From the NCBI GenBank assembly GCA_964371045.1, contig CAYJMN010000002.1, forward strand, positions 60,959-124,958: 64,000 bases of DNA, written 5' to 3'. Within the stretch, counting starts at the first letter, position 1, and each line of letters begins with the position of its first letter. The notes under the pieces were generated by a model. It ran no database searches, had not been told where the DNA came from, and was given only the letters and a program-made list of their open reading frames with translations. Both the position numbers and the translations under genes were made by a program. The DNA is from an uncultured Chromatiales bacterium (lineage in GTDB: Bacteria > Bacteroidota > Ignavibacteria > SZUA-365). Below are positions 4,172 to 60,667 of this stretch, piece by piece.

Positions 4172-4212
4172 CGAAGAAAAAATGGGTCGGTACGCACGGA
4201 GACGTACCGACC
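4172..4212 (-). terminator. intrinsic terminator downstream of the OmpA-family gene
   Basis: Perfect 10-bp stem GGTCGGTACG/CGTACCGACC (4185-4212) with an 8-nt loop. On the minus strand it is followed by a T-rich tract (complement of GAAGAAAAAATG, 4172-4184). It lies 13 bp past the stop at 4225. Confidence 0.6.
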
Positions 4213-14761: not shown

Positions 14762-14841
14762 GGATATACAATATACGCGAAACCGCATAAAAAAAGCGTC
14801 CCGCCGTGAGGCGGGACGCTTGGTAAGGTTTGACTAACCGA

Positions 14842-17800
14842 TTACTTCAGCAGGGTCATCTTGCGAGTCTGCACGAAGTTACCTGCAACCATCTTCACGA
14901 TGTAGTTGCCCGAAGGCACCTGAACACCGAGATCGTTGGTGGCATCCCAGACAACCTGGAACGCACCGGCATCGCGTGTTTCGTTGACGAGAGTCTTCAC
15001 ATGGGTGCCAAGGAGGTCATAGACCGCGATGGTAACCTGAGTCGACTTCGGCAGCGAGAAGTTGATGCTGGTGGTCGGGTTGAACGGATTCGGGTAGTTC
15101 TGACCGAGTGCGAATTCCGAAGGAACGCCTGTCTGAGGTGTGACATTAAGGATGCCAACCTTCCGAATTAACAAGCGGAATCCAGGACGGTTCTGCGGAT
15201 CTGCGTTCGGCGGGGATGACAGCGTAGCATAGAGCGGTCCAGACATAAGACCGAAGCTATTGTCAAAATCGCGAGCCGTGACATACCACACAACTGCCTG
15301 TTCTTTCGTAGTCGGCTGGCCAGAGATCTGGTCAATGATACCGGCGAGCTGTCCATGATTGGTCGTTAACTGCGCAAGATCACCATTGTTGTCGCTATCG
15401 AAGACCACAGAGCGGGTCCGACTTACCGCATCCACAAAGGTGATGTCGTAACGAACGACGTCGGTGTACGTTGCCGGGTTGAAGCGGGAGACCCGAATGT
15501 TAGTGTAAGGATCCTGCGGCACAGCTTTGACCCAAGTGAACAGTTCTACATTGGCGCCCTTCATCAGATCGATTGTACTGTTGTCGGCCGGCAATTGCAG
15601 AGCGAACGCATTGGGAGCGTGGTCGAGGATTTCATACGGGTTGGTCGAACCAGAGATCGACGGGTCGTTGGACTGGAAGGCTCTCACGAGCTGAAGCTCT
15701 TCACCCATGGAGGCGATGCGACGGATACGGGATGCCAGGAAGTAATTGGTCACACCGTTGATGAACACATCACCAGCCCAGATGTTGGAGAGACCAGGAC
15801 CGTTCGAATCGAATTCACCCGGGAAACGAGCGGTGAACGCGGTACGAACATTACGACCACTGACGACATTGAGATAACGATCGCGCGGGGCGACAATCAG
15901 CTCATAGCGACGGAGGAGGTAAACCTGATCGGGACTACCGGTCTGAGGATAAATTTCGACGAGGTAATTCGTCACCTCATCAGCCGTGAAGTTCATCTTG
16001 GCAGACTCCTGGTTGAGATTAGCAACCGTCGGTTTGACTTCGATGTACACGCCACGGTCGGCCTTCGTATGGATGATGCAAATAATTGCAACACCGTCCT
16101 TGAAGGCACTGGCCGGGATAGACCAGGTCGAATCGTCGATCTGGAGAAGCTTCGTACCGTCTTTCGTGATATATGCATAGGTGTAGCCATTGGGATCCGC
16201 GTTCCAGCTGCCCCTACTGGTGTCAGTATTGGCGAACGAGTTCTGGAGAACAAGCTCGGTAGCCGGGCTGTTCTTGTCCGGGCTATCCCAGTCACGAATG
16301 ATGTTACCGTTTTCGTCGCGAGCCGTCAGTGTGAAGCAAATTTCTTCACCGACGAGCGCGTTGATATCAGGATCACCAGCCATCGGTTCAATTTCAACAC
16401 CGCCGCCCTTGAGCTTGGTAAGCGCAAGACGGAAGTCGTTGGAACGGATCCAATGCGGCTGGCAGGAGGTCGGCGACCAGCGACTTGTATCACCGTTGAG
16501 TGCATCCGCCGGATTCGGCCAAATCCCTTCGAGGAACGGGAATTCGACTGTTTCCATCGGACGATCGTCGTTGACATTGAAGTCCTTGGTGTAGACACGC
16601 CAGATGATCTTGATGGAGTCGGCGCTGGTGCTGGTAGGATCGGAAGAGAAACCAGCGAACAGTGCGTCAAGCGTTGCGGTGGGAATCTGGATGCCCGTGG
16701 ACGTACCGGCGTTGATGACGACAATGGTGCCGACGGGGGCGCCCTTGCCAGCCGGGAACGTGCTTACCACTTCACCATACCACTGATAGCTCAGGGTATC
16801 GATCGTGCGGGTGGGATCCTTTTCCCATGTACGGGTTGTCGGATTGTAGATCAGGAACAGACCACCTTGGAGCGCTTGCTTGTCAAGGTTACGATCCTGG
16901 GCATTCGACCAGAGAATGGGAAGCGGCTGAGTACCATCGACGAATTCCGTGGCACCGTTCGGCGGCTGGATGGCCGTCGGAGCAGCGTACGGAGCGCGGT
17001 TGATGGAAATGATCAGCGGCTCGGTCGGAAGCGGATTGTTACGAACGGTAATACCGGCCGTATCGGAGTAGGTCTCAAGTCCTGCCATCTTGCTGAAGGC
17101 GCGCACAAACCAGAACACGCGGGTAACGATGCTGTCCTGATTCGGTTGCGGGAGCACGTTGGGACGGAAGATGAGTTCGCGAACCTTATCTCCGGAGAGG
17201 GTAAGAGTCGGGCTCTTGCCATCGTTGTCGGAGAGAATGCTGACAGTGCGGGTTGCGCCGCCAAAGGCGCCAAGACTGTCAATGATCGCGTACCACTCGT
17301 AACGAATAGTATCGTTCGGGTTGTTCATGGAAGGATCGGACCATTCAGCCCGTGCCCAGTTCAGGCGCAGGAAGTCATTTGCCAATCCATTGATCGGGTT
17401 GCCAAGAGAATCGAAGCAGTTACCGGTATGATCCATACGGAACAACGAAGTATTCTGCAACGTCGCTGTGCTCAGCGTGAACGGTCCGGGCGCGAACGGC
17501 ATCTTGATAGAGACCGGACGAACTGCGATGGCGTTGGCGGGAAGCAATCCATGACGGAGAGCCTGACCGGCACGTTCACCGACAGCGTCGCCGAGACGCT
17601 TGTCATCGGGCTTGATACCGACGAAGTCGTTGCGATTTCCCGCGCCGACGAGCGACAGGTTGTACAGAATAATCGAATCCTGACGGAGTTGGGTATTCTG
17701 CGGGAAGCCAACCGGACGAGCCTGGAAGTAACGGCCACCGGCTGCGATCTCGAGGTTACCGGCAGCGCCCATGGCATTCACATTCGTGAATTCCCATGTG

Positions 17801-20800
17801 GTGTGACGCGTGCCAAGATTGACATACATCGAGTCGCGATTGTTCAGGTTACCATAGCGGTCATACGGAGTGACTGCGTAGGTGTACCATTGGTCGCGGA
17901 AGATGGTGTCTGGACGTGCGTACGGTGTACCGACATTGTTCGGAATCTGATCTTCCGTCGCGCCATGGTTGATTTGACCATAGAGACGTGAGAAGATTTC
18001 GAAAGCTGAGGTCGGAGTACCATACGGATCCTGATAGTACATCGGGCTTACGCGGGGAAGCGTATCGATGTCGGCCTGAACCGGAAGAATACCGACGGGC
18101 AGAGTTGACTTGTCATGCGTGTTCGCAGTGTAGTCGAAGCTGCTCGGGAAGATAGAGGTAAAGGCAATACGATACGGCACAACCACGAAAGTGTGACGCA
18201 GACGGCCATAACTGGACGGACCCCAGAATTGACGGGTCGCAGCAACCATGAGACCGTGGGTTGCACGGTTCGTGCGCTGGATCGGCAATTCACCGATACG
18301 ACCGACGGACATGTTTGGACCCTGGATGTCCGTTACATTCGCATCATAGTACGTATCGTCGAGGTGGAACAACGGATTGCCCGGATCGAGACGATTGACT
18401 CGACGAACAACTGTGAACTTACCCTGATCGTAAGAGCAGGTGTCATCCACCGTGTTGCCGGCCATGTCAAGAAGGTTCGGGTCAACGACGCGCACATCGA
18501 TAACCTGCTCTGCTGTCGAGTCGACAATGCGAAGGAAGGCGCCCGGAGCGAAGGTCAGGTTGGCGACGCCGCCGACCGACAATTCGCGACCAAATGCCTG
18601 GCCAAGCAATGCCACGCGGCGATTGAAATCACCGAAGACAGCACCGGTTGCATCGGCGCCACCATTGAGGCCTACCGCGAAACGAGTGCGGAAGGTATTG
18701 AGTGGCGGAAGCGGACGGTGAGGTAGACCGGCGCGGAGGAAGTCCTCCGGAATCCAGAATCCAACTCCGATGCGGGTAATGCGATCGCCTTCACCGGTCA
18801 GCTTGTACCAGCCGGGGTTGCCGCGATCGGTACGAGTACCCATGAATTCGGCGCGCGTTGCGGCCGTCCTCAACGGGGAGATCGTGCCTTGGTACGTGTA
18901 GACAGAGTCAGCAAACAGACGACCGTACTGACGGGTCTGTCCGGGCTGATTGGCGACGATGTACGGATTACCGCCGGTCGGGGGATCATTCTCCCAGATC
19001 GGGGTGATACGCATCAATACGGGACGACGATCGTCACGATTCGCGCCAACGCCGCTGGTACCGATACCGTCGCCACCACCGGCAATGGTGATGTCGAAGA
19101 TAGTGCCGTCGCGACGCGCGCCGGCGGGCACAGTGACTTTCCCGCCCTGATCGTTGTTGAGATCATTGTACCTGTCGTTGGGCGAGGTTTGCGGGTTGAG
19201 GTTGTTGAATGCATCCAGTTTCTGGAGCACAACGAGGTTCGAGTATGGATCGCGCTCGAAATCGGGGTTGAACGAACCGTCGGGGAGGAACAGCGCATCG
19301 CCGTCCTTGTCGAGAGGCACGTTGTCTTCGTTCACGATTTCATACTTGCCAACCGGTTTCGGGCTGACGTTGCGCTTGTAAACCTGTGAGATCAGGATGT
19401 TATCCACGCCCTGATCGGTGAGGCCATGAAGCTGAGGATCGGCGCCCTCCGGGATGGAGATGTTGACGACCGGCGGGATGAGAATCGCGCGAGCCTCGGG
19501 CGGACCAGTGAGTTCGTACACGCCAACCGTACCGAGACCCGGGCCGAGAGCCCTGAAATCCTGACCGGTGCGGAGGATGTCGAAACGAGTGGGTTCCTTC
19601 ACGACGGATACGACCTTGACCGTGTCGCGGTGAATGTTCACCGGACCCTGACCGAGAAGAACTGCCGTCGCGGTGGCTTCAAAGAAGACCGTTGCGTTGG
19701 CGAGCTTCGGCGTCGGGTATTCGAGAGCCGTGAAGAACGCGGTCTGGTTGATATGGACACCATAGACAAGGTTACCGACCTTGGTGTGGCGATAGCGAGC
19801 CTTGCGCATCGGGCCATACTCGTCACGGGTCCAGTTACCGATCGGGGCAACTGTTCCGGGAGTGCCGCCATACGGTGCGGGAGGCGAGGTCCAGTTGTCA
19901 CCCCACATGCGGAAACGCACGCGAGCGGTGTCTTCTGCTTCGGAGAAGTTGTCAACGAGGTTATGGAACCTGTCGAATTCGCGAGCAAGCAGCGTCACGG
20001 TACGACCGGCGGTAATGGAGTTGACATCCAACGGATCGCTGTTCACCAGGTTCAGCGTGTCCGGTATGTACGGACGGATGTTCGTGTTGGCGACGCGGTT
20101 GTAGTGCGTTGCGCGATCTTCCTGCGCGAGAGGATTCGCGGAGTACGCGAAGAACTTCGGCGCGTAGTTGTTGATCGCTGCAATCGAAGCACCACCATCC
20201 TGATACACCGAATGGTGCTCGAGGACCTGAAGCTTTACGAGGTCAACCGGAAGCGGGATCGGGGAAGTCGCGGCGGCCGTGTACGGGAAGATTTCCACGC
20301 GCACAGTCGTATCTGACTTCTGGTAGATCGGGATGATGACACGCGGCGCGAAACCACGTTTGCTCGGACCGACAGCAGTACCCTCACCGAGGTTGCTACC
20401 GAGGTTCGGAACGAGGTCGAACGCTAACGTATCGGGAGTCATCGCGATACGGATGATCTGCCAGCCAACACGGCCGGAGATGAAGTATGTGCTTACCCAA
20501 CCGGCCTGTGCGGTATCACCGATGGTGGTACGTTTGAGCGTATCATCAGTGATGAACGAAGTGCCCATTTCACCGAAACCGCCACGTTGAGCGTTGCTCT
20601 GAAGCTGGGTTTTCGGCGGGGTAACAGGAACTGTCTCGCTCTCGACGAAGAACTTGACGAGACGGCCGCCAACCGGATTCTGGAAACGATCGAGCAGACG
20701 AGCGACAACGCGCACTTGCTTGTTGTGCTCGGAGACGACGACCGTATCCATCGGGATCGGGGCGGTTGCATCATGATCGAGATCCACTTCACTCGCTTGG

Positions 20801-23800
20801 AAGCTGCCGATACCCTGATCGCTGTAGCCCATGGGCTCCATCACGGTCGGGAAGTCGGGCGAGGTCGACGGCTGCACTTCGGCACCCGTCGAACGGAAGA
20901 AGTAGCCACGATAGAATTCATTCGACTCTGCCGCATTGCGCGGAGTGCCTGTCGGATAGCCTTGGGCAAGAAGATCAGCGACCGTACCCGGGCCCCAGCC
21001 CTCGAGAGGAACAGTCGTACCCTGAGGCTTGCCAGTCGATTTGAAGACCTCGACTGTGCTTGCAACATCAGGAATAACACTGACTTCACCAATGGCGGAC
21101 TGAATCGAGAAATCACAGACGCCAGGAATTGTTTCCAAACGAAGGTGAGCGATAAGACGGACGACATCGGTACCGGCGAGACTCAGCTTGGTGACGTTCT
21201 GCGGTGCGCGGAGATAGAAGCGCACGGCATTGTAACCAAGGAATGCCGGCAAGTCGCCTGCGATACCGGGCAGCGTGTTACCCGGTGCGACGTACACGAG
21301 TACTGCATCGAGAACCTGTCCCGTCACGGGATCAAGTACGGGCTCGGGGTTGTCAATACCACCGGCGCCGCTGTTCGCGACGTTCGCGGAAACCGAAGCG
21401 TAGAAACGCTTGGCGCCCGTGATAGGCGGATAGTACAGCTTGTTGTCGGGAAGTTCGACAAACACGCGGTTCGTGTTCGGGTAGAAGTACGGCGCGATAT
21501 CCTTGGGATTGCCGAAGATATCGGTGATACGGATATACAACTTGTCGAAGATCGGGTTGCGGTAGTTACCAACGCGACCAACCACAAATGATTCGTCACG
21601 ACCGATAACAAGTTCAATGCGCGGCTGACCACCCTGGAAGAAGGTCCAGCCGGTACCGTCCCAAAGAACGTCAGTCGAATCCATCGATGTCGTCTGGCCC
21701 ATGTTCTTGCCCAGCTTTGCATTGTAGCCAGTGCCCGGACCAAACCAGATGCCGAAATTGTTGTTCGGCGAACCGTCAGGGATGAAATTCGAATGCGAGA
21801 AACCGATACCCGGAGTCAAGTCGAGCTTGTTCGGGTCGTTGACATCGCTTCCACGATCGTTGAAGGCGTAGGTCGAACGCACGCGAATACGATACGGACC
21901 GATGTTGTTGCTACCGGAAGCCGCGCGGAACACGCGGTTGTTGCGTCCGAGGTTGGACGTACCGACAAACACGCGACCGGAGTCGATGTTGCCACCAGTA
22001 ACGACGATCGGGGAGATCGGATTAATGAGCGAATCGAAAATACCATTCAGACGATACGGGAAAGGATTGGTAGTGGCGCACAGCTCACCAAACGGAGAAA
22101 GCTCGAACTTGAACTTCTCGTTGTCATCAACTGTGTTGCCATAACCATCGGTCATGAGAATGTCGAGACGCAGATAGTTGTTATCCGCGGTGCCCTTCCA
22201 CTGATCGGTCGGGAGAATGTCGATAGCGCGCGGAATGTTCGGGCGCACGACGATCTTGGAACCGGTGTTGGGAAGAGAATTAACGCCGAGCGGATCCACA
22301 GGCATGCGCTCACCGAACGGATTGCCGTCGTGTGCGTCAAAATACCAGGTGGGACCATTCGTGCGGGCGCCGCCGTCAACAAACGCTTCCTGCGTGCGAT
22401 ATGCGCCGGGCATAAGACCGACAAGACCGCTGCGCGGGAAACCGCCGGACGTATCACCTGTCGCCTGCAACGTACCGGGAATGCCTGCGGGATCGGAATA
22501 ATTGATTACCGCTTCCGCATAAATGCGGACGGAATCCTCAACGCCACCGGCATTGACACCGACGTCGGCGTGAGTATACGCAAGACGACGATAAATTAAC
22601 TGACCGAAGTGACGAACGGTATCGTCAGCAGCCGTCATTCCCCTCAGATACATAGTGCGATCTTCGGGAATGGGATTGCTGATCGTATACGCAAGCGCCT
22701 TAAGAACGGGCTGCGTCATGCGATCCCAGGTACGGTTGCCATACGCATCGAGGAAGCGCAGGGTGTCAACCGCCGAGGAGACGAGACCCGGTTGATAGGG
22801 ATTCGCCGCGACATTGGACGCGCCCGGGCGATACGGGGGAATGAGACCATTGACGGGATTCGGGTTCAGACCGACGTACCAACCGGCTTCGGTGAAGGCG
22901 GCGGGAGCGAGAGCCTGATACAGGTTCGACAGCTTAAGCGGGTTGCGCTCGGGCGGCAAACCGTCGATCATCATGCCATAATCGGGATTAAGGATCGGGG
23001 GATCCGGGGAGCCTACGAACGCGCGGAACTGACCAGGGCGGAAGCTCTGGTGCGCAGTGTTGAGCGGATCGAAAGGCAAGCCGTCGTCACCAAGGAAGTA
23101 ACGACCGCGTGTGTAATCACCGAAAGAACCAATGTATTCACCAGCGTCGACTGCCTGCGCGGAATCCTTGACCCAAACGAGAAGGCGGGTCGTTCCGGGA
23201 AGCAGCTTTACGATTGCGAGATCTGTACCACCAGAGAACTGTCCACTTGGGATTACCGTGCCGTAGGCAAGCGGGTTACCGCTGCTGCCATCAAGCAGGT
23301 AGGCGCGAAGGGTGTCCTTCGTGGTGTCCGGGGGGACAGCCAGACCAAGCAGGTTGTTGATGTTCGGTTTAAAGAAAATGTTTCTGATCTGGATGCCGTC
23401 ACCTGCCGCGGTCGGGTTAGTGACGCGGAAGGTCAGCATCTGACGGATAGCACTCGGGTCGCTATTGAAAGGACTCGAGCTTGCGATATCTCCAACATTG
23501 CGATACACAGGGCGAAGGCCCACGTCACGGCCAGCGGCCGCACCGTCGTTCTGCGGAGGCAGAGCGGTATTCGTGATGACGCCGTCATACTGCTGACGAG
23601 CGAGCGACATCCCGGTAGAAGTGGTCGCAATACGCACACGTACATAGTCAAACACGGTCTGAGAGATCATGTTATTGACAATCTTGAAGCGGTTCTGGAC
23701 AAAGAACACCGCAACGGAATCGTTGTGGTTAAAATTGCCCACCCCACCTCCACTATCAAACAGGGTCAGCGTATCCGCGATAAAGGTCACGGAGTCTGCA

Positions 23801-23925
23801 GTCTGCTCGATGGTGCGTGTGATGTTGAAGAAGTCGCCCTTTACTGTACGGATCTGGGCATTCGCGCTCAATCCAAAGAGCAGCACGAGAGCCAGCACGG
23901 ACAGAAGAGTTAGGGTTTTCTTCAT
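14842..23925 (-). CDS. giant secreted/cell-surface protein (~3027 aa) with a T9SS C-terminal sorting domain; no recognisable catalytic or adhesin domain
   Basis: Signal peptide [24 protein letters not shown] at the internal Met (23923-23925). One uninterrupted ORF of more than 9 kb, rich in G/N/P/T/D. The C-terminus (...[40 protein letters not shown]...[22 protein letters not shown]) is a canonical T9SS CTD. Confidence 0.85.
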   Translation of the reverse strand: [3027 protein letters not shown]

Positions 23926-24353
23926 TCGAGAAATCTCCTGGTTAGTTAAAAAATGGGTCGGGGTAAACGGGTTGAACACTGCACATACCTGGTGGTTAAT
24001 GCTGGTGGTGGTTCGTTCCTCCTGCGAATTTTCAAATTGTTTGTTTTCTCTATGCATCGTAATAATCATTTTTCGGGAAACTCAATTTTGTAATATAGAC
24101 AGGGACTCAATATCAAACAACTTGTCATGACGGTTTCCACCACGCCATTACGCGTGAGGCTACTAGCCAGCATCTGATATGCAAAAACACTGCCAAAAAA
24201 TAAACCGTTTGTTTTCAACAGGTTACGCTTGTCTCAATCGTTGGCGTCAATATGATGACAGGTGTGCTTACGATGATCGACAAGGTTTTGACAATGTAAT
24301 GCCGCCTGGTGTTTTTTATGATGGATAGACCAAACTCGACCCGCGTGACTCAA

Positions 24354-32830: not shown

Positions 32831-33176
32831 CGACTGTACCGATGAGTGAGCCCATAGAAATTTCCATTGCGCGAGACGCCTCCAAGCAGTAACATGTGTG
32901 CTGCCATGCGCCTCGCGATATTGGTGCGACATTTCAATATAGCCATTTTCACAAAGAGTGACTGTTGCACGGACCGATGCATGTTGCGTATTTTTGGTGT
33001 TGGCCGATAACTTCGTTTGAAGATTCCCGTCCATCTGGAAATCGTCTTTTATCCGCAAGTCCCCAGAATCGATCACCTCATTGCTGAAGGGTCTCTATCG
33101 AGCAAATCGCTACAGTACAACTGACTGATCTCCACTCGCACACGGCAAGAGACGATTGACTGCCAACACGAATCGA

Positions 33177-36100
33177 ATGAGACCTTCATCCCGTTACTCG
33201 GGCGATGGGCGAGGTGTATCCTCGCCAGTCCGCTATTATGGCGCGGTGATCGGCGCCTCGGCGCTGTCGTTGCTGCTGTTTCTCGGCGCATCGGCAACAC
33301 CCGCGTTTCCGCGGTATCACATCACCATCGAAGCGGCTCGAGCCTGGAATCTGGCGATCGCGGCACTCGCTTTCGTCCCTCCCGCCGCCGAAGCCGAAGC
33401 CGCGACGCTTCAACCGCACACGGAGGAATCGACTGCGGTCGAGGAAGCTTCCACCGTCCCTGCGCTCGAATTCGATCTGTCTGATCTTTTGCCGTCGGCT
33501 GGCCCCGGCATAAACGAAAACCGGCACCCGGTAATTTCAGATCCGTTTTTCGCCGACATGGAACTCGCCGCGTTTGCGGCTTCACTCCCGCGGCCGGACG
33601 ATAGTCTTGATATCCCTCCATCCGACAGCACCACTCGAGCGAAATTTCTTCCTCAACGCCGTCGTCCCTCACCGGTTACACAGCCATTCCCTGAACGCGT
33701 TTCTCCGCTGTATTTGAATTCGGGAGCCATTACACGCCTTGTGACCATCGACTCTTCAAAAAACGAGGTGCTTATTAGGGAGACCGTGAATGGAAAGGAC
33801 ATTCGCATTCCCTATCGCATGACGCTCGAGGATTACATTCGTGCCCGATACAATTACGAGCGCGAACAGCGCACGGCGGCTGAAGCAGCGCGGTTCGAAA
33901 AACAGGAAGGCGACCAGCTCGAGCAATTGCTGAAAAACCTGACCGAGATCGACATTCCTATCGCCCCGAATCCGTTGATGAGTATTTTCGGCGACCGCAG
34001 CCGCATCAGCGTGCGAATCAACGGCGCTATCGATATCAATGCCGGATTCCGCATTGAGTCATCGGACCAGCAATCGGTGTTCCTTCGCCCGACGCAATTC
34101 TCTCCGAACTTCAAACAGCAGGTGCAGATCAACGTCAACGGTATGGTCGGCGACAAGCTCAGCATCAAGGCGGATTGGAGCACCGAGCGGACCTTCGATT
34201 ACGAGAACCAGCTGAAAATAAAATACACCGGCTATGAGGATGAAATCGTTCAGTCCGTGGAAGCGGGAAACGTTTCTCTGCAAACGCCCTCGTCGCTCAT
34301 TCAGGGAAGCGGCGCACTGTTCGGCATCAAGGCGGAGTTCCAGTTGGGTCCACTCCATCTATCCACGATCGCCTCGCAGAAAAAGGGCGAATCGTCGAAG
34401 CTGTCCGTTTCCGGCGGTGCCCAGGAGCAAAAGTTCGAACGGCGCGCATACGAGTATTCGGACAATTATTATTTTATCGATCTCGCCTACCGGGAAGACA
34501 ACAACGAAGGAAATAACCAGTACGAGTCCTATTATAACTTCCGATTCACGCATCCGGGATCCAAGGCACCGTACATTCTGTTTCCCTCGTTGATCGTCAA
34601 GGAAATCGAGGTCTGGGTATCCCGACCAGCCAGTTCGGGCGTCATAACCGATCCCCAGGAACGCGAAGCGATTGCCTTCATCGACAATCCCACGGGCTAC
34701 GAACCTTCATCCTCCGATTTCCCGTCAGAATACACACCATTCCTCGATCCAGGCCTCACGGTGACGCCGGAATCCGGCTTGATCGAGGCAGGCAAATTCA
34801 AGCGCCTCCAGCGTGACATCGACTACACTCTGAGCAACGCGACCGGTATCATTTCCTTGAATCAGAGTCTCCAGGACGATCAGGTTGTTGCCGTCGCATA
34901 CCGTATCGAGGGTCCCAGCGATCTTACTCCGACGGACGACATCATCTTTGGTACTTTCGCAGGCGACCCGCGTCTGAAGGTGTACAAGGATGCGAACGGA
35001 TTGGATGTACCCTCACGCATGGTGCTGAAACTGGTCAAGCCGCGCAACCTGACTCCCTCCTTCGAGAAGGCGTGGAAGCATAAAGTGAAGAGCATCTATT
35101 CGCTGAACACCCGCAACATGCGCGCGGAGGATCTGGCGAATTTCAAGCTCATGTACCGAAGCGGCGGCCAGCCCGACCAGGAAGTGCTGCCCGATATCAG
35201 TGCGCTGCTGATCCGTCTGTTCGGTCTCGACAATACGGATGACAATGGCGGCTACCCCGATTCAAAAATCGATTTTCTTCCCGGATTGACGGTCAATCCT
35301 GTGCGCGGCGAAATCATTTTTCCGACCCTCGAGCCATGGGGACAGGGCCTGCTGGACAATTTCAAGCAGTTGTTGCGCAGCCAGGATACCTCGTTGATCA
35401 AGCCCTTCCTGTTCCCGGAATTGTACAGCGACACAAAGCAGGGAGCACAGAGGACCGGTAAAGATAAAATCCTGATTCTCGGTACCACGCGCGGTTCGAG
35501 TTCGGCCATTTTTCAACTCGGTTTCAATGTCGTCTCTGGCTCGGTGCGTGTGACGCTCAATGGTTCTCCGCTCACACCCGGAGTTGACTACACCGTTAAC
35601 GAGCAGGTTGGTTCCGTTCAGATTCTTAAGGAGGAAGCGCTCGCACCGGGAGCGAAGCTTGACATCGAATACGAGAAACAGGACCTCTTCACCTTCGCAT
35701 CGAAGACCCTCGTCGGTGCACGTGGAGAAATAGATATCAATAAGGAGTCGTACCTCGGATTCACCTTCCTGAGCCTGAGTCAGAAAACACTCAGCGACAA
35801 GGTGCGCATCGGCGAAGAACCCATCAGCAACAGCATGTTCGGCGTCGACGCAAAGACGATGCTTGAACTCCCCGTCCTCACTGACGCTCTCAACACACTT
35901 CCCTTCATTTCGACGAAAGAGAAGTCGACACTCACCCTGCAAGGCGAAGCTGCGATGGTGATGCCCGGCGGAGATTCAAAAACCAGCACCATCCCTTCCG
36001 ATAATGGCGAAAGCATAGCATATCTGGATGATTTCGAGGGCTCGCGCATTTTCATTCCTCTGCAGACCGCGTATTCCGTGTGGCGCACCAGTTCCGTGCC

Positions 36101-39100
36101 CAACGTACTGCCGAGCAACAACGCCGCCAACGACAGCATCATGAATACCAACCGGGCCATGCTGAATTTCTACAATCTCGATATCTCGTCCACGTCGCCC
36201 AGGACCGTTCGTGTCGATGACATCTGGCCCGAAAAAAGTGTCGCGCGCGAGGACCAGCGTGTGACCGTACTGGATCTCGATTACTATCCGACGGTCAGGG
36301 GGCCATACAACTACACACCCGATCTCGGTGTACAGCAGCGCAACTGGGGCGGCATCATCCGCTTGCTTCCGTCCAACGCGTCCAACCTTGTGGACGGTAA
36401 CTTCAACTACATCGAATTGTGGATGAAGGTGGACAACCACAGCGGCGGCAAGCTGATCATAGACATGGGAAAGATTTCGGAGGATGTGATCCCGAATGGG
36501 AAACTCGAATCCGAGGACGACTACCTCCCGGGATCGATTCGTAACGGCATTCTCAATGCCGGCGAAGACGTGGGTCTGGATATGCTTACCGACGATCAGG
36601 AGCGCGAGCGTTACGCCGCCGAGATCGCCGCCGGCTTGATCGATGCGGTAGATCCGAGCGGGGATAATTTCCGGTACGATCCAGACAACTGGAGAAGCTT
36701 CAACGGCACACAGGGCAACGGCGACGAGGAGGACGGAGATCCTGCGGGTCAATTCCCCGACACGGAGGATCTGAACAACAACAGCATTCTGGATCTCGCC
36801 AACGATTATTTCCGTTTCGTGATCGATCTCGACACGACGCGCTTCGATCTCGGCGCCGTGGATCACAATCCCTATGTTGTCGGCGGCGGCACCAACGGAT
36901 GGTATCAGTTCCGCATCCCGCTCAACGTGCCGGATGATCGCATCGGCACTCCTGCGCTCGATAACGTCGAGTATTTGCGCGTTGTGCTTACCGACATCGA
37001 GAGTCAGGATGCCGCGACTCCGGTCAACGTGCGCATCGCCGAGTTCAACCTGGTCGGCAATCAGTGGTACGAGCGCGTACGCAACGATTCCAATTTCGCG
37101 GTGTCCGTCGTCAATGTCGAGGATAATCCCCTTTACGAGGTGCCGCCGGGGGTTATTCGTCCCCGGGACCGTACCAGACCCGATCAGCAGATTTTCGGCA
37201 ACGAGCAGTCACTGAATTTGAGTTTCGACAATCTCAAAACCGATACGCTTCGTGAAGCATATAGGCTCTTCCCCGGAACGGGCATCGACCTGTTCAACTA
37301 TCGTCGCCTCAAAATGTACGTTTACGGTGATCCGCTTCTCGATGGCTTCGATTACGAGGTCGTGATGCGTTTCGGCATCGACACGGCCAATTATTACGAG
37401 TATCGGGCGCCGATCAGACCGCGATGGGCTGATGAGAACGAAATAGACATCGATTTTTCCGAATTGACCGCTGTGAAAGCGATCATCGACGCAACTTCCA
37501 CCTACGATGATTTCCCGTCCAGCAGCAATCCCGACGCGCATTTCTGGGTATACGGCAGCCCCGATATCGTCCGTGTTCAATTCATCTCCGTTGGCGTCCG
37601 GAACATGGACAGCAGGGAAATCAGCGGCAACGTGTGGATCAATGAACTCCGCGTTATCCAACCGAACACGCAAATCGGCTACGCCTACAACGCATCCATG
37701 AACCTCCGGCTGGCCGATATCGCGGATATCAGCGCCAGCATGATGCACAGTGACCCGTACTTTCACGGTATATCCGAACGCTTCAGCGCCAATCGCGCGT
37801 GGACGACGGCCTGGAACATGAATACGACGTTGAATATCGACCGGGTCTTTCCACAGGATTGGAAGGGAACGCAGGTACGCGTGACCTACTCGCATGCGGA
37901 GAATCTGAGCAAACCGCTTTTGCTCGCCGACAAACCCGATGTCGTGGTTGAAGCTTCCGTGTCAGCCCTTGCGGAAAAAATGCGGGGTGAAGGCAAATCG
38001 CAGAGGGAAATCGACATCGAGGTGCGCAACGCCCGCATCGCGACGCAGACGCTCGAGATTCGCGACAGTTGGGCGATTCCCACCGTCAGGCTCAAGGCCC
38101 CGGGCGAAAGCTGGCTGGTTCAGGATGTGGTCAATCGTCTCGAATTGAGCTACAATTATTCGGTGACCCGTTTTCGCGATCCGGTGTTCCGCTCCCGGCG
38201 CAACTGGCAATGGCAGGCGAGGGTCGGTTACGGGTACGACTTCGGAAGAGAATCTTATGTCCAGCCATTCAAGAAGCTATTTGACGGCGTGTTCCTCCTC
38301 GATGCCTATCGCGACGCGAAATGGTATTTTCTGCCTACACGTATCGGAACCGATGCGACACTCGATCGTTCGCGCATCGAAGAGGTTGAGAGATTCCCGC
38401 TGCGTTACCGTCCTTTCACACGATCCTTTACGCACAGTCGGTCGGCGAACCTCTCGTTTACACTTTCGGAAGCCAGCCTTCTCAATCTCAGCGGAAGCAT
38501 TGGATCGAACATCCGCACGTCGCTTCTCGGTCTTGAAACCGAGCAGGTCTTCGATGCCAATGGCGACCAGGTGGTCGACGATTTCGGGATCCCTGTCGTG
38601 ACGCAACGCCAGAGTTCAGCGATTTTCCGCGATATCTTCTTCGGGAAGGGACACTTCGATCTTGGTCCCGCCACCAATTACCAGCAGCAATTCTCCCTTC
38701 AAAGCCGACCTGCGATTCCGAATATCTTCAATCTCGATAAATTTGTCGATTTGAGCGCCGGTTACACCGTTTCCTACAATTGGCAGCAGAACATCCAGCA
38801 GGCGGACCAGGGTCGGACGGCGAGTTACAACGCCAGCATCAACTCGACGCTGAACGTCAAGCTGCGGCAATTGTTTGAGCCTCTTTTTGGTTCCGCTAAA
38901 CCTGCAGCCCCTGTTCCGGACAGAAAGCCCGTGCCTGGAAGAACCATGCCCGCGAAACCGGATAAGGCGCCGACCGATTCAGGCGAAGATGGGGAAAGAA
39001 TCGAGGACCTCCCGTTGCGTCTCCTGATCGAGCGCCTTGAACAGCTCGATCCCACGTTATATGCGATGGAAATAGAGAAGCTCCGTCCGGTGGTTGAGTT

Positions 39101-40646
39101 GGAATTGCAGCTTCGCGAAATGAAGCGCAATGCGCGCCAGGATGAAGACATGGAGAGAGTCATACAGATCAACGAGGAGATACAGCTTGCCCGGAAACGA
39201 GCAATCGCCCTGCTCAAGAATCAAGCTGAACCTGTTGGCGAGGAAGAAGACCCTCAGGCCGGCGGTGGTTCAAATCCCTTTTCGCTGATCGCAGGTACAT
39301 TCGGCGATATTCTCTACTATGGTCTGAAGGTCCCGTTCCTGGATTACGATAATGTAGGGTTCACTTTTTCGCAGGGCAACACCAGCCAGGTTGGCGGTGT
39401 ACGCGGTCTGACGGGTTTCACGACCTTCTGGTCGAGCACACCGTTCGGCAACCAACCCAACGCAGACGAGGGACCATCTCAATTGTATCAGCTCGGTCTG
39501 GTCAGCGATCCGAATCCCTCTTCCGGACGAATCGCGTTCAAGAGCAGCTTCCCCTTTATCGGGATTGAGGACTATAGTCGCGGTCTCCGCGCGCCGAATC
39601 CCAGCGGAACGTTCGCGGATAACTACGCACAATCCAATACCTTCTCCATCAAGACCAATCGCCCACTCTGGGAAGGCGCCCGTCTTGATCTCAACTGGGA
39701 TCTGCGCTGGTCGCTCAACAAGAATTACCAGATCCGGACAACGGATCAGGGCGAGCAGATCATTACAAGCATCACCACAACTGGACGACTCGAGCGTTCT
39801 TTTCTGGCTTTCCCCGATTTCCTTTTCTTCAGTTATTTCAACACGAACATGAATTCCGTCAATGAGCGGTTCACTGAGCTGAAGAACGATCCGACCGACA
39901 TGAGAATCGAGTCCGAAAAACTTGCCCAGGCATTCGAGGAGGGATTCGAAGCTATTCCCTGGCTTTCCTCGGTCATGACCAATTTCCTTCCTCGAGTCAA
40001 CTGGGGTATCCGGTGGGACGGGATGGAAAAATGGAGCCTCCTGAGCGGACTTGCGGATCGCATCTCTTTGGAACACCGTTATTCCTCGAACCTCGCCGAT
40101 GGATGGCGTTTGAGTCCTGACGACGGCTCCCGCCTCACTGAAACGAAGCAGGTTGGTTTCAATTTCCAACCGCTCATAGGTGTCCAGCTCGGGTTTAATC
40201 AACTCTGGGGCGGCGATCTCAGCGTCACGACACGATGGAGCAAGAAAGGTACATTCGGCCTGAATTCCTCCGCGAGCAACATCACCGAAGACAACACGGA
40301 TGAGATCACCATGACCGCCGAGTTCAAGAAAACCGGCTTCGACATGCCCTTGTTCGGCCTGACGTTGAAAAACGACATCAATTTCAATGTCGCCTTCAGT
40401 CTCGCGAAGAATTCGTCACGTATCTACAGCATCAACGACCTTGGTAGCGGTGGTCAGCCTCGCGAAGGAACCACACGCACCACAATCGAGCCGCGCGTCC
40501 GTTATTCCGTCAGCCAGCGTGTGCAGGCGTCCATTTTCTATCGGTACCAAAGGACCAAGCCCGATGCCGAAGCCGGCTCGCGCATCCCCGGTACCACCGT
40601 GCACGAAGGCGGCCTCGAAATACGCATTACCATCGCCGGTTCATGA
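33177..40646 (+). CDS. sprA: T9SS outer-membrane translocon SprA/Sov (cell-surface protein SprA)
   Basis: ORF of about 2490 aa, matching SprA size. N-terminal hydrophobic signal-like segment, then extremely long beta-rich sequence throughout. Sits in a T9SS-bearing genome context with three CTD cargo genes in the window. The start is ambiguous: TTG at 33156 or ATG at 33177. Confidence 0.75.
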   Translation: MRPSSRYSGDGRGVSSPVRYYGAVIGASALSLLLFLGASATPAFPRYHITIEAARAWNLAIAALAFVPPAAEAEAATLQPHTEESTAVEEASTVPALEFDLSDLLPSAGPGINENRHPVISDPFFADMELAAFAASLPRPDDSLDIPPSDSTTRAKFLPQRRRPSPVTQPFPERVSPLYLNSGAITRLVTIDSSKNEVLIRETVNGKDIRIPYRMTLEDYIRARYNYEREQRTAAEAARFEKQEGDQLEQLLKNLTEIDIPIAPNPLMSIFGDRSRISVRINGAIDINAGFRIESSDQQSVFLRPTQFSPNFKQQVQINVNGMVGDKLSIKADWSTERTFDYENQLKIKYTGYEDEIVQSVEAGNVSLQTPSSLIQGSGALFGIKAEFQLGPLHLSTIASQKKGESSKLSVSGGAQEQKFERRAYEYSDNYYFIDLAYREDNNEGNNQYESYYNFRFTHPGSKAPYILFPSLIVKEIEVWVSRPASSGVITDPQEREAIAFIDNPTGYEPSSSDFPSEYTPFLDPGLTVTPESGLIEAGKFKRLQRDIDYTLSNATGIISLNQSLQDDQVVAVAYRIEGPSDLTPTDDIIFGTFAGDPRLKVYKDANGLDVPSRMVLKLVKPRNLTPSFEKAWKHKVKSIYSLNTRNMRAEDLANFKLMYRSGGQPDQEVLPDISALLIRLFGLDNTDDNGGYPDSKIDFLPGLTVNPVRGEIIFPTLEPWGQGLLDNFKQLLRSQDTSLIKPFLFPELYSDTKQGAQRTGKDKILILGTTRGSSSAIFQLGFNVVSGSVRVTLNGSPLTPGVDYTVNEQVGSVQILKEEALAPGAKLDIEYEKQDLFTFASKTLVGARGEIDINKESYLGFTFLSLSQKTLSDKVRIGEEPISNSMFGVDAKTMLELPVLTDALNTLPFISTKEKSTLTLQGEAAMVMPGGDSKTSTIPSDNGESIAYLDDFEGSRIFIPLQTAYSVWRTSSVPNVLPSNNAANDSIMNTNRAMLNFYNLDISSTSPRTVRVDDIWPEKSVAREDQRVTVLDLDYYPTVRGPYNYTPDLGVQQRNWGGIIRLLPSNASNLVDGNFNYIELWMKVDNHSGGKLIIDMGKISEDVIPNGKLESEDDYLPGSIRNGILNAGEDVGLDMLTDDQERERYAAEIAAGLIDAVDPSGDNFRYDPDNWRSFNGTQGNGDEEDGDPAGQFPDTEDLNNNSILDLANDYFRFVIDLDTTRFDLGAVDHNPYVVGGGTNGWYQFRIPLNVPDDRIGTPALDNVEYLRVVLTDIESQDAATPVNVRIAEFNLVGNQWYERVRNDSNFAVSVVNVEDNPLYEVPPGVIRPRDRTRPDQQIFGNEQSLNLSFDNLKTDTLREAYRLFPGTGIDLFNYRRLKMYVYGDPLLDGFDYEVVMRFGIDTANYYEYRAPIRPRWADENEIDIDFSELTAVKAIIDATSTYDDFPSSSNPDAHFWVYGSPDIVRVQFISVGVRNMDSREISGNVWINELRVIQPNTQIGYAYNASMNLRLADIADISASMMHSDPYFHGISERFSANRAWTTAWNMNTTLNIDRVFPQDWKGTQVRVTYSHAENLSKPLLLADKPDVVVEASVSALAEKMRGEGKSQREIDIEVRNARIATQTLEIRDSWAIPTVRLKAPGESWLVQDVVNRLELSYNYSVTRFRDPVFRSRRNWQWQARVGYGYDFGRESYVQPFKKLFDGVFLLDAYRDAKWYFLPTRIGTDATLDRSRIEEVERFPLRYRPFTRSFTHSRSANLSFTLSEASLLNLSGSIGSNIRTSLLGLETEQVFDANGDQVVDDFGIPVVTQRQSSAIFRDIFFGKGHFDLGPATNYQQQFSLQSRPAIPNIFNLDKFVDLSAGYTVSYNWQQNIQQADQGRTASYNASINSTLNVKLRQLFEPLFGSAKPAAPVPDRKPVPGRTMPAKPDKAPTDSGEDGERIEDLPLRLLIERLEQLDPTLYAMEIEKLRPVVELELQLREMKRNARQDEDMERVIQINEEIQLARKRAIALLKNQAEPVGEEEDPQAGGGSNPFSLIAGTFGDILYYGLKVPFLDYDNVGFTFSQGNTSQVGGVRGLTGFTTFWSSTPFGNQPNADEGPSQLYQLGLVSDPNPSSGRIAFKSSFPFIGIEDYSRGLRAPNPSGTFADNYAQSNTFSIKTNRPLWEGARLDLNWDLRWSLNKNYQIRTTDQGEQIITSITTTGRLERSFLAFPDFLFFSYFNTNMNSVNERFTELKNDPTDMRIESEKLAQAFEEGFEAIPWLSSVMTNFLPRVNWGIRWDGMEKWSLLSGLADRISLEHRYSSNLADGWRLSPDDGSRLTETKQVGFNFQPLIGVQLGFNQLWGGDLSVTTRWSKKGTFGLNSSASNITEDNTDEITMTAEFKKTGFDMPLFGLTLKNDINFNVAFSLAKNSSRIYSINDLGSGGQPREGTTRTTIEPRVRYSVSQRVQASIFYRYQRTKPDAEAGSRIPGTTVHEGGLEIRITIAGS

Positions 40647-43863: not shown

Positions 43864-43885
43864 GAACACCCCTTCGGGGGTGTTC
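43864..43885 (+). other. stable UUCG-tetraloop hairpin (GAACACCCC-UUCG-GGGGUGUUC) in a 540-bp non-coding gap
   Basis: 9-bp perfect GC-rich stem with a UUCG loop, read directly from the sequence. No U-tract follows on the + strand; on the - strand an A/T-rich tract follows. Possible processing or stability element, or a U-tract-less terminator. Confidence 0.4.
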
Positions 43886-53456: not shown

Positions 53457-54014
53457 ATGCAACAAAGACTACAGCAAGATGACGAGGCGATACTGCGCGT
53501 ACAGAACGGTGATAAACATGCCTACGCCCTGATCGTTGATGCATATATGCGACCGGCCTATTATTCCGCGCTTTCCCTGGTTGGATCACATGATGAAGCG
53601 ATGGACCTCTCGCAGCAGGCGTTCATACGGGCGTATCTTTCCATTGATTCCTTCATCCCCGGCCGAAGTTTTTTCACCTGGTATTACCGCATTCTACGCA
53701 ATCTCTGCCTGAATTTTCTGCGCGACCGATCCTTACACGCTCAGCCCTTCTCTCGTTTCGATTCCATGTTCGAGTCAATCGGTAACGGAGACGATCCGTC
53801 CGCTGCAGCTGACCGCTCACTGACGCGCGACCGTGTCCGACGCGCGTTAGCCCTTCTCAAACCCGAAGAACGCGAGATCATCATGCTTCGCGAGTTCGAG
53901 GGATACAGCTATGCTGAAATCAGCGAATTGCTCGAATGCCCGACCGGCACGGTCATGTCGCGCTTGTACTATGCGCGGAAGCACGTGAAAGATTTTCTGG
54001 AGGACGTATCATGA
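53457..54014 (+). CDS. ECF-type RNA polymerase sigma factor (sigma-70 family, group 4)
   Basis: Region 2 (YMRPAYYSALSLVGSHDEAMDLSQQAFIRAY; WYYRILRNLCLNFLRDR) and region 4 HTH (SYAEISELLECPTGTVMSRLYYARKHVKD). Start taken at Met 53457 with AAAGGA upstream. Confidence 0.85.
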   Translation: MQQRLQQDDEAILRVQNGDKHAYALIVDAYMRPAYYSALSLVGSHDEAMDLSQQAFIRAYLSIDSFIPGRSFFTWYYRILRNLCLNFLRDRSLHAQPFSRFDSMFESIGNGDDPSAAADRSLTRDRVRRALALLKPEEREIIMLREFEGYSYAEISELLECPTGTVMSRLYYARKHVKDFLEDVS

Positions 54015-54463
54015 CAGACCTGGAACGAGACCGCTTCCGCACACTGATGATGAAAGCGCTTGATGGTGAACTGACGGGCGGTGAGCATTCTGAATTCGAG
54101 ACATTTCTTCAAACACCCGATTGCTCCCGGGAGTGGACGGAGTATCTACACATCAAGGAGGAAACCATGTCGCTGAAAATCAAATCACCCGCACCGGAAG
54201 TCTGGGACGATTATTGGAGCGGAGTGTACAACCGCATGGAGCGTGGCGTCGCCTGGCTGCTTGTGTCCATTGGCGCCGTCCTGCTCCTGGCATGGGGCGC
54301 CGTTGAGGCCGCTTCCGCAGTATGGGCGGATTCCGAACTGCCATGGTTCATCAAGCTTGCCATCGCTACTCTCAGCGGAGGTTTGCTACTTCTGCTTTAT
54401 TCCGTGATCCGGGAACGCTGGTTCATGGCAAAAACCGACAAATACAAAGGGGTCATCCGATGA
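54011..54463 (+). CDS. putative anti-sigma factor (membrane-anchored)
   Basis: ATG overlaps the sigma-factor stop (ATGA). N-terminal cytoplasmic segment (MTDLERDRFRTLMMKALDGELTGGEHSEFETFLQTPDCSREWTEYLH) resembles a zinc-finger anti-sigma N-domain, followed by two TM helices. Confidence 0.55.
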   Translation: MTDLERDRFRTLMMKALDGELTGGEHSEFETFLQTPDCSREWTEYLHIKEETMSLKIKSPAPEVWDDYWSGVYNRMERGVAWLLVSIGAVLLLAWGAVEAASAVWADSELPWFIKLAIATLSGGLLLLLYSVIRERWFMAKTDKYKGVIR

Positions 54464-59189: not shown

Positions 59190-60011
59190 TCAACCCCCGA
59201 CAGCGACAGGATTCGCGTCGCGGGAAATCCAGTCGCTCCAGCCGCCTGCATAGAGCCGAGGCAAGCCAAGGCCCACTTCCGATGAAGCCAGGATATTGAC
59301 ACAGGCCGTGACGCCGGAACCGCAATACACGATCACACGTTCGTCGATGCCTGTCAGCAGGTCCGACAGTTCGGACGGTTGCTTGAAAAAGCCGTCCTCC
59401 GTCAATAGATCGCGCCAAGGAACATTGAACGCACCCGGGATGTGTCCTGCCACCGGATCGATGGTTTCCTGTTCACCCCGGAATCGTTCGGTCGCCCGGC
59501 AATCGACCAACAGTTGCATCCCGCGTGTGCTGACTTCGTCCATGAACGCGAGAAGGGAAGGACTTGGTTGCGCCAGGAACATCCGGGGCCGAACGCTGGA
59601 GCCGGTAGCGACAACCATTCCGCCGGCACGCCGCCAGGCCGCGAAACCGCCGTCAAGCACCTGAACGTCGTCGTGTCCGAGGTAACGAAGCATCCACCAG
59701 ACGCGCGCGGCATAGCAGGAGGCTTCATCGTCCAGGCATACGATCCGCGTTCTGCCGCTTTCGATACCGAGACGCGAGAAGAGCGCCGTCATCATTTCAA
59801 TGGACGGAAGGGGATGTCGTCCGCCATGTTCGCTCAGCGGCGCACAGCAGTCATCATCAAGAGACACATACAATGATCCGGGAATATGCCCTGCTTCATA
59901 TCTCCTCCAGCCTGAAGAGGGATCGGCGAGGTCGTATCGACAGTCCAGGACAAGTAAATCCTCTGTTCCCAACATCATTGAAAGCTGTGCTGAATCGATA
60001 AGATGCGACAT
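59190..60011 (-). CDS. sseA: rhodanese-domain sulfurtransferase, 3-mercaptopyruvate sulfurtransferase type
   Basis: Two rhodanese domains. Active-site loop CGSGVTACV is the MST-type CG(S/T)GVTA. Start taken at the internal Met 60009-60011 (MSHLIDSAQLSMML...); the 71-codon extension is not supported. Confidence 0.75.
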   Translation of the reverse strand: MSHLIDSAQLSMMLGTEDLLVLDCRYDLADPSSGWRRYEAGHIPGSLYVSLDDDCCAPLSEHGGRHPLPSIEMMTALFSRLGIESGRTRIVCLDDEASCYAARVWWMLRYLGHDDVQVLDGGFAAWRRAGGMVVATGSSVRPRMFLAQPSPSLLAFMDEVSTRGMQLLVDCRATERFRGEQETIDPVAGHIPGAFNVPWRDLLTEDGFFKQPSELSDLLTGIDERVIVYCGSGVTACVNILASSEVGLGLPRLYAGGWSDWISRDANPVAVGG

Positions 60012-60469
60012 GAAGACTCCGATTTCTGGAAACCACACCATACAATGATCGGAAAGACCATCGAAGCGCACAAATGCCGGATGAATGTTCGAGAACGATG
60101 AATTCACACCATAACCTTCGAACCGTCTCCAAGCCGCAGTTTCAGGTTGTTTATTGCTCCAACTAGCACGAGATCGCTTCGATGATAACGAGGCACCGAC
60201 GCGGTGCGACAGAGAAAGGTTCAATTTATTGCGGACGCCGGGCCTTGAGATCCCTCGTCCGGCATTTTCTCGTGCATGGATGAATTACTGCACTACTTTT
60301 CATTCACACGATGGTAACCTTCACTCACCCTGCGGTGTTTATAATTCAGGAAGTGAGAGACGGCAAGATACCTTCCTCCTTAATGATGGATAGACTCAAT
60401 ACCTTCCTGTGAACAGGCTCAGTAACGGCACCCCTCACATAGTCTTGTCGCCTCAGCTTTCAATGTTCC

Positions 60470-60513
60470 GAAGATCCCGGTTTCCCTCCTCTGACCGGGA
60501 TCTTCCTTTTTTA
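60470..60513 (+). terminator. strong rho-independent terminator/attenuator hairpin on the + strand, 155 bp upstream of the 60668 start codon
   Basis: Perfect 12-bp stem GAAGATCCCGGT/ACCGGGATCTTC with a 12-nt loop, immediately followed by CTTTTTTA. There is no coding ORF upstream of it on the + strand back to the divergent sseA gene. Confidence 0.65.
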
Positions 60514-60667
60514 TCTCACGCCACCCTCGCTCGCTGATTACCGCCTTCAACACTCCGACTACCCCCGCCATCGTTGCTTTCCCGTTACCCCGCGCGTCCC
60601 CAACACGATTATTGCTTCTCCGTAGCGAAAAGGATACCTTTCAGCCAATACACGGACAGGTATCGCT

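Follow-up and report, generated by a model that had tools for sequence, protein, structure and literature searches.

A conserved candidate small RNA gene with an ECF-like promoter element and an intrinsic terminator, divergent from sseA in uncultured Bacteroidota

In Enterobacteria, the small RNAs (sRNAs) MicA, RybB and MicL depend on sigmaE and on Hfq, carry their seeds at the 5' end, and act in trans on the mRNAs of envelope proteins. Promoters of extracytoplasmic function (ECF) sigma factors generally have AAC in the -35 and CGT in the -10 element. To our knowledge, Hfq is generally absent in Bacteroidota, and riboregulation in this phylum is known to us almost solely from gut Bacteroides. 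The sRNA GsrN of Caulobacter depends on sigmaT/EcfG and has an ECF-type promoter (GGAAC as -35 and CGTT as -10, the elements of sigmaT promoters); conservation in GsrN is highest in an exposed loop rich in cytosine, through which the RNA base-pairs with G-rich tracts of mRNA leaders (PMC5869019). Bacteroidetes lack classical Shine-Dalgarno (SD) sequences, and the promoters of their housekeeping sigma factor, sigmaABfr, read TTTG / TAnnTTTG (PMC7366714). Here we describe an element at positions 60348-60513 (+ strand) of a 64-kb stretch of contig CAYJMN010000002.1 from an uncultured member of the Bacteroidota (the window, by which we mean this whole stretch of analysed DNA), in the spacer between the divergent gene sseA and a gene for a propeller protein. 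The element is very likely an independent sRNA gene, a reading that the first-pass annotation of the window had offered as an alternative to a leader or riboswitch, and that is supported by the geometry of its promoter-like boxes, a covarying helix and a conserved terminator.

The element was found in other genomes through its neighbour. A search with the SseA protein, one genome per species, returned two metagenome-assembled genomes (MAGs) of Bacteroidota with 58-59% identity (L001 and L002), both of which carry the element upstream of sseA, in the corresponding spacer. When metagenomes were scanned with a 19-mer taken from an invariant block, six matches came up, three of them true copies and three (L071, L072 and L074) chance matches, and inspection of the contigs of SseA homologs at 56-71% identity added seven further copies. 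In total, 12 distinct RNA sequences are available from uncultured Bacteroidota MAGs and metagenomes. Five of these sequences served to build a covariance model (CM R1), with which the 12 homologs reach 104-192 bits (E 1e-25 to 3e-49). The model detects one copy at each locus, a single one in the window, and none in the distant taxa searched. The RNA has a mean column identity of 79% over the 12 copies; the flanking spacers reach 50-64% even in the closest relatives, the flanking SseA proteins are only 55-71% identical, and the propeller proteins of the window and L002 only 58%. The sole constant neighbour of the element is sseA, which is divergent from it in 12/12 loci. The unit is thus conserved regardless of the genes around it and has a structure supported by covariation, as expected of an independent sRNA.

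Each of the 12 RNAs, folded singly, forms a long imperfect helix (P1) that begins at nucleotide 1-2 and links the 5' end with the segment immediately before the terminator. Compensatory changes were seen at 10 of the 18 P1 pairs in a model-guided alignment. Of the cells of the 32 modelled pairs, which comprise P1 and the terminator, 94.7% are paired, and a shift of the 3' partners by 1-3 columns lowers this to 34-57%; none of 500 shuffles reached the observed covariation. An RNAalifold analysis of the 12 copies aligned with MAFFT only had misaligned the 3' strand of P1 between subgroups, and single-sequence folds and the alignment guided by the covariance model were used. The comparison of orthologous spacers, which had been proposed as a check for covariation, came out in favour of a structured RNA. 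P1 encloses an internal region of about 70 nt with two invariant blocks and two CU-rich motifs, the blocks being predicted to be mostly unpaired (probability 0.69-0.82). The 22-nt block, AATGATGGATAGACTCAATACC, is identical in the window, L001 and L002, in which SseA is 58-59% identical, and for its part AUAGACUCAA the predicted probability of being unpaired averages 0.78. Within the second block, which can be written as the consensus GGCUCA(A)GUAACGGCACC, the string AGTAACGGCACC is invariant in 12/12 copies (mean unpaired probability 0.69-0.82). The small CCU/AGG hairpin between the blocks has no covariation support, because its bases never vary.

The 3' part of the element is a hairpin composed of GAAGATCCCGGT (60470-60481), the 12-nt loop TTCCCTCCTCTG (60482-60493) and ACCGGGATCTTC (60494-60505), followed by CTTTTTTAT. 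Its 12-nt arms are 100% complementary in a repeat search (13 bp if U-G is counted), and the RNA folds with -22.6 kcal/mol (z = -5.5), a value equalled by 0/200 shuffles. A stable hairpin with the U-run CUUUUUUA, kept in 12 homologs, is what defines an intrinsic (Rho-independent) terminator, and the perfect 12-bp-stem terminator originally placed at 60470-60513 is confirmed in its arms, fold energy and trailing T-run. Nine of 14 stem pairs are invariant and three at the base show compensatory changes (e.g., G-C to A-U in L078). The loop, 10-12 nt long, contains CCCUCCUCUG, which is invariant in 12/12 copies (mean unpaired probability 0.86) and includes an anti-SD-like CCUCC. A standard terminator scan overlooked this hairpin because its loops were limited to 8 nt; a dedicated scan found four perfect hairpins of at least 9 bp in the window, among which it is the sole one with a large loop and the sole one with a T-run on the + strand. 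The other three (14794-14821, 4185-4212 and 43864-43885; stems of 9-12 bp, loops of 4-8 nt) have T-runs on the - strand and stand at the ends of - strand genes, i.e., they are ordinary intrinsic terminators.

The spacer itself, from the start of sseA (60011, - strand) to the ATG of the propeller gene (60668), measures 656 bp. Its open reading frames (ORFs) are all short (79, 42, 33 amino acids and similar), with neither length nor frame kept in any homolog compared; the gap had earlier been put at about 650 bp. A search for tRNA and tmRNA genes gave none, and a standard scan of the region for sigma70 promoter and terminator consensus sequences returned nothing, the sigma70 consensus being unsuited to Bacteroidota. 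The second, weaker hairpin that had been noted in the spacer exists (at about 60237-60263), but its fold equals that of shuffled sequence (z = -0.02) and its sequence is not kept by the nearest relatives.

Upstream of the predicted transcript, all 12 copies share the arrangement (G/T)(G/T)TAAC-N17-YGTT-N9-GGAAG, in which GGAAG opens P1, so that the predicted 5' end lies 9 nt past the GTT in every homolog. The -10-like element contains CGTT in nine copies and TGTT in three, and the sequence of the 17-nt spacer varies, as expected of a two-box promoter with a fixed spacer length. The boxes therefore match the ECF-type consensus (AAC in -35 and CGT in -10, about 16-17 nt apart) in its CGTT form in 9/12 copies and in a TGTT form in 3/12. 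A TATAAT at 60340-60345 is not conserved among the homologs, most of which are also without the TAnnTTTG -7 box of sigmaABfr promoters. The putative sRNA promoter thus resembles the ECF-sigma type and is unlike the housekeeping type of Bacteroidetes. Further upstream, the element at 60274-60306, about -75 to -42 from the predicted sRNA start, has counterparts of the form ATGGA..AATT..TTTT(A/C)C in L001, L002, L075, L086 and L087, and may be an activator (regulator-binding) site or a site of the UP type. The coordinates of these features are collected in Table 1.

Table 1. Positions in the window of the predicted sRNA, its parts and nearby promoter-like and SD-like motifs.
Feature	Position	Strand	Support
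Conserved upstream element, GCATGGATGAATTACTGCACTACTTTTCATTCA (GCATGGA..AATTA..CTTTTCA)	60274..60306	+	Window, L077, L078
-35-like hexamer GGTAAC	60313..60318	+	(G/T)(G/T)TAAC at equal position in 12/12
-10-like element TGTTTA (YGTTWA)	60336..60341	+	17 nt past -35-like hexamer in 12/12
Predicted sRNA transcript, ~165 nt	60348..60513	+	CM R1 homologs, 5' end position, folds
P1 5' strand, GGAAGU-GA-GAG-A-CGGCAAGAU	60349..60369	+	In minimum free energy fold of 12/12
CU-rich motif 1, CCUUCCUCCU	60371..60380	+	Pyrimidine-rich CCYUUCYUC in all homologs, exact sequence varies
Invariant block, 22 nt, AAUGAUGGAUAGACUCAAUACC	60382..60403	+	Nearly invariant in 12/12
CU-rich motif 2 and small hairpin CCUG-UGAA-CAGG	60404..60417	+	CCU...AGG pairing possible in all homologs
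Second invariant block, GGCUCAGUAACGGCACC	60416..60432	+	Alignment of 12
P1 3' strand, GUCUUGUCG-C-CUC-A-GCUUUC	60442..60461	+	Folds and covariation
Terminator hairpin, loop (U/C)CCCUCCUCUG(A/G)	60470..60505	+	Fold and 12-copy alignment
U-tract, CUUUUUUA	60506..60513	+	At least 5 U after hairpin in 10/12; weaker in L075 and L086
Putative propeller gene promoter-like element, TTG-N20-TACCTTTC	60612..60642	+	Predicted; fits sigmaABfr TTTG / TAnnTTTG
SD-like GGAG at -9 of sseA, speculative target of CCUCC loop	60017..60020	-	Ortholog scan

A gene for an ECF sigma factor (Sigma70_r2/r4_2/ECF) is present at 53457-54014 (+), about 6 kb upstream of the sRNA, and is followed by an overlapping ORF of 175 amino acids (53936-54463, +) that has no Pfam match and may encode an anti-sigma factor. 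L089 has a syntenic sigma factor gene near SurE and UPF0182, with 76% identity of the product. A conserved motif different from that of the sRNA, TGAATA..GCG(T/G)GTATCATTAT, precedes the sigma factor gene. A second GGTAAC-N17-YGTT site in the window, at 5207, lies within an OmpA-like gene on the opposite strand and was dismissed as a chance match. The window also contains two giant ORFs of 3075 (14842-24069, -) and 2496 (33156-40646, +) amino acids.

Taken together, the element is probably best explained as a stand-alone sRNA of about 165 nt that belongs to a previously undescribed family, with the sigma dependence and base pairing in trans that we propose for it. Transcription would be driven by an alternative sigma factor of the ECF type and not by the housekeeping sigmaABfr, so that the RNA would be made upon a stress or envelope signal. 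The RNA would then act in trans by base pairing, its seeds being the C-rich loop of the terminator and the invariant blocks that lie exposed, and its partners purine-rich sequences around start codons. A clamped 5' end, long exposed invariant strands and a C-rich terminator loop would suit the design of a trans-acting base-pairing sRNA, and base pairing as the mode of action is a possibility that we put forward tentatively.

Several points weigh against this proposal. We infer the transcription start site (TSS), the 3' end and the expression of the sRNA from sequence, and the alignment used for covariation was fitted to the model, so the pair counts given above are biased towards the structure. 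The sigma factor was assigned by consensus resemblance, 3/12 copies having TGTT instead of CGTT, and the syntenic ECF sigma gene does not carry the sRNA promoter motif upstream. The element is also missing from a sister group with SseA of 60-63% identity, namely from the 3 kb around sseA in L079-L082 and from the 10 kb around it in L089. As to the targets, neither of the two long invariant blocks finds a complement in the 64-kb window, the duplexes between the terminator loop and the ribosome-binding sites of sseA are modest (-1 to -12.5 kcal/mol, as any SD-like motif would give), and a generic anti-SD mechanism is unlikely because the genome appears not to use SD sequences generally. Invariant blocks of 22 and 17 nt exceed the usual needs of a seed, in loci whose proteins are about 58% identical, and such invariance could mean protein binding or a tertiary fold. 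In the metagenomes of the sister group (L079-L082 and L089, from the Joint Genome Institute), PriA and DUF2721 genes stand upstream of sseA in place of the block formed by the sRNA and the propeller gene.

Among possible targets, the mRNA of sseA deserves mention as a speculative one, a lead rather than evidence. SD-like tetramers precede 5/34 crude gene starts in the window, which equals the background (13.7%). In such an SD-poor genome, the SD-like GGAG retained by sseA is unusual and makes this gene a candidate target for the CCUCC loop. An ortholog scan found GGAG, AGGA or GAGG at -9 to -14 of sseA in 10/12 loci that bear the sRNA (11/12 if L001 is counted, in which GGAG precedes a later in-frame ATG according to a start corrected by eye), and the motif in none of 10 UPF0182 and none of six propeller orthologs. 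At several loci CAG(A) stands before the SD-like motif of sseA and would lengthen the pairing to the UCUG of the loop. The motif is also found in at least one relative without the sRNA, L081. Duplex predictions with the whole sRNA against the 5' regions of sseA gave long, meaningless duplexes with z near 0, and within the window the complements of the blocks and the loop correspond to the sRNA gene itself or to matches at background level. A perfect 12-nt inverted DNA repeat (59976-59987 / 60454-60465) places CAGCUUUCAAUG in both RNAs, as codons 9-12 of the sseA mRNA and as the P1 3' strand plus linker of the sRNA; this is the same sequence and not complementarity, and, as none of the other 11 loci keeps it, it is probably a coincidence.

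A role in protein binding stays the main rival of base pairing because the blocks are so extremely invariant, and we consider it unlikely. The RNA would bind or sequester a protein, or form a ribonucleoprotein (RNP), with the P1 clamp presenting the ~70-nt region as a platform that titrates or scaffolds its partner, which may be an RNA-binding protein, a ribosomal component or polymerase. Besides block length and invariance, this would agree with an internal region devoid of convincing secondary structure and of covariation, with the three pyrimidine-rich motifs of the RNA, and with the lack of a complementary target in the window. However, no partner gene is consistently linked to the element, whose neighbours are sseA, UPF0182 and variable genes, no RNP family of Rfam, 6S, SRP and Y-RNA included, is matched, and each block is single-copy, whereas sponge RNAs typically have repeated motifs. 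A further and decidedly improbable reading is that the RNA acts under stress as an anti-SD mimic whose invariant CCUCC loop and CU-rich motifs capture the few mRNAs with SD-like sites (e.g., sseA), or that its invariant 70-nt loop docks a ribosomal or another conserved protein.

The readings that do without an independent sRNA fared worse. In the first-pass annotation, the terminator was read as possibly part of a leader or riboswitch that regulates the propeller gene (60668) by attenuation. That gene is indeed co-directional, 110-320 bp past the terminator, in the window and in L002, L078, L083, L085 and L087, and some read-through into it is conceivable, but L001 keeps the element in front of an unrelated PDZ-SpoIIE phosphatase gene about 400 bp away, and in L075 no co-directional gene follows, the next gene being a convergent CN_hydrolase. 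Because its position beside the divergent sseA is kept whatever gene lies downstream, the element is not a leader. The search for an antiterminator that had been suggested revealed no pairing able to compete for the 5' arm of the terminator: in the 12 homologs its best upstream duplex amounts to -4.0 to -7.8 kcal/mol vs -22.6 for the terminator, and shuffled upstream sequence pairs even more strongly with it (means of -6.7 to -9.9 kcal/mol). The propeller gene moreover has a conserved promoter-like element of its own, GATAC(C)TT(T/C) being found in 5/6 propeller-gene loci and always downstream of the terminator, and Rfam scans gave no riboswitch family, just as no known riboswitch consensus had been recognized before. 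The attenuation reading can hence be regarded as refuted in its main points, and we give it very little probability. On the other side of the spacer, sseA is preceded by a housekeeping-like TTTG-N20-GATCATTG (60043-60074, - strand; read by eye). An inverted repeat, GATACCTTTC / GACAGGTATC, spans the -7-like box and the 5' untranslated region of the propeller gene at 60633-60664 (RNA fold z = -2.4); its GATACC...GGTATC is also present in L078, and its role could be that of an operator, or of a hairpin covering the start region.

It is scarcely credible that the transcript is a short mRNA for a micro-protein beginning at a conserved AUGAUG: although AUGAUGGAUAGACUCAAUACC could encode MMDRLNT in most homologs, frame and length diverge past codon 7 (9, 8, 24, 9, 37, more than 50, and 28 amino acids), synonymous variation is absent from the 21 nt, L077 has lost the first AUG and its single substitution is non-synonymous, and conservation runs on in all three frames past the stop codons. 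The probability is equally negligible that the conservation reflects a function in the DNA itself, as operator, recombination site or remnant of a mobile element, or that the hairpin is a stray terminator shielding the propeller gene from transcription that arrives from upstream. The unusually invariant terminator stem (9/14 pairs) and the location between divergent and tandem promoters would be compatible with it, but P1 covaries as an RNA helix across 90 nt of separation, the geometry of promoter, helix and terminator is conserved, and each locus has one copy without flanking repeats.

The sRNA reading thus yields a candidate family from uncultured environmental Bacteroidota that is well delimited, strongly conserved and structurally supported, and whose apparent alternative-sigma promoter and invariant exposed sequences lead to concrete predictions of TSS, size, seeds and a candidate target. 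Should the link to ECF sigma factors and the anti-SD-like loop both prove functional, envelope or stress signalling would be tied to post-transcriptional control in a phylum without Hfq and without classical SD-led initiation, and if the anti-SD mimic or protein-docking reading holds, it would add to translational control a new level confined to SD-poor Bacteroidota. For annotation, it would mean that a gene lies in a seemingly "empty" spacer of 656 bp, and that attenuation does not control the propeller gene.

Judged by its sequence, the element is probably a new family of intergenic bacterial sRNA with a promoter-like element and an intrinsic terminator that is absent from Rfam. The region was scanned at E <= 10, five homolog loci at E <= 5, and the window as a whole at gathering thresholds. 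No family matched in any of these scans, the only matches being at chance level and to hairpins with C-rich loops. The best match in the spacer, for which an Rfam scan had been recommended, was the 6C RNA (RF01066), a family with two C-rich-loop hairpins, with a sub-threshold 26.5 bits vs a gathering score of 47 (E = 0.34), of which the terminator hairpin alone aligns; anti-hemB (RF02837) reached 16.7-18 bits vs 49.5. In L084, the stretch 2153-2238 (-) between sseA and UPF0182 gave sub-threshold matches to rnk_pseudo (32 vs 55 bits), BSnc120 and RNAI, which probably reflect a convergent terminator hairpin.

Compared with described systems, the element has the intergenic sRNAs of Bacteroides, e.g., GibS (PMC7366714), as its relatives by phylum-level group and by SD-poor translation, and like them it has an intrinsic terminator and, as predicted here, its own TSS. 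It shows no sequence relationship to them, and those studied have sigmaABfr promoters, whereas TAnnTTTG is mostly absent from the element. With MicA, RybB and MicL it has in common an ECF-sigma-like promoter (ECF-sigma in the enterobacterial case), an intrinsic terminator and, in place of their envelope targets, a gene for a secreted or surface propeller protein as its neighbour; there is no homology, and its 5' end is locked in P1. RsaE/RoxS of Firmicutes and 6C of Actinobacteria likewise present CCUCC or UCCC motifs in hairpin loops or unpaired regions, with which they target SD regions, but the element has no Rfam match to RsaE, it differs from both by its long clamp helix and 70-nt loop, and its targets may follow another logic in an SD-poor host. 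GsrN differs in phylum, shows no homology in sequence or structure, and has its C-rich loop at the 5' side, whereas in the element this is the terminator loop and two long invariant single-stranded blocks are added. Both are nevertheless intergenic sRNAs with boxes of a similar kind, GGTAAC-N17-CGTT in the element, where ECF dependence is a prediction, and both are loosely syntenic with an ECF sigma gene, here at a distance of about 6 kb. The closest functional parallels would therefore appear to be GsrN and the C-rich-loop sRNAs of Gram-positive bacteria.

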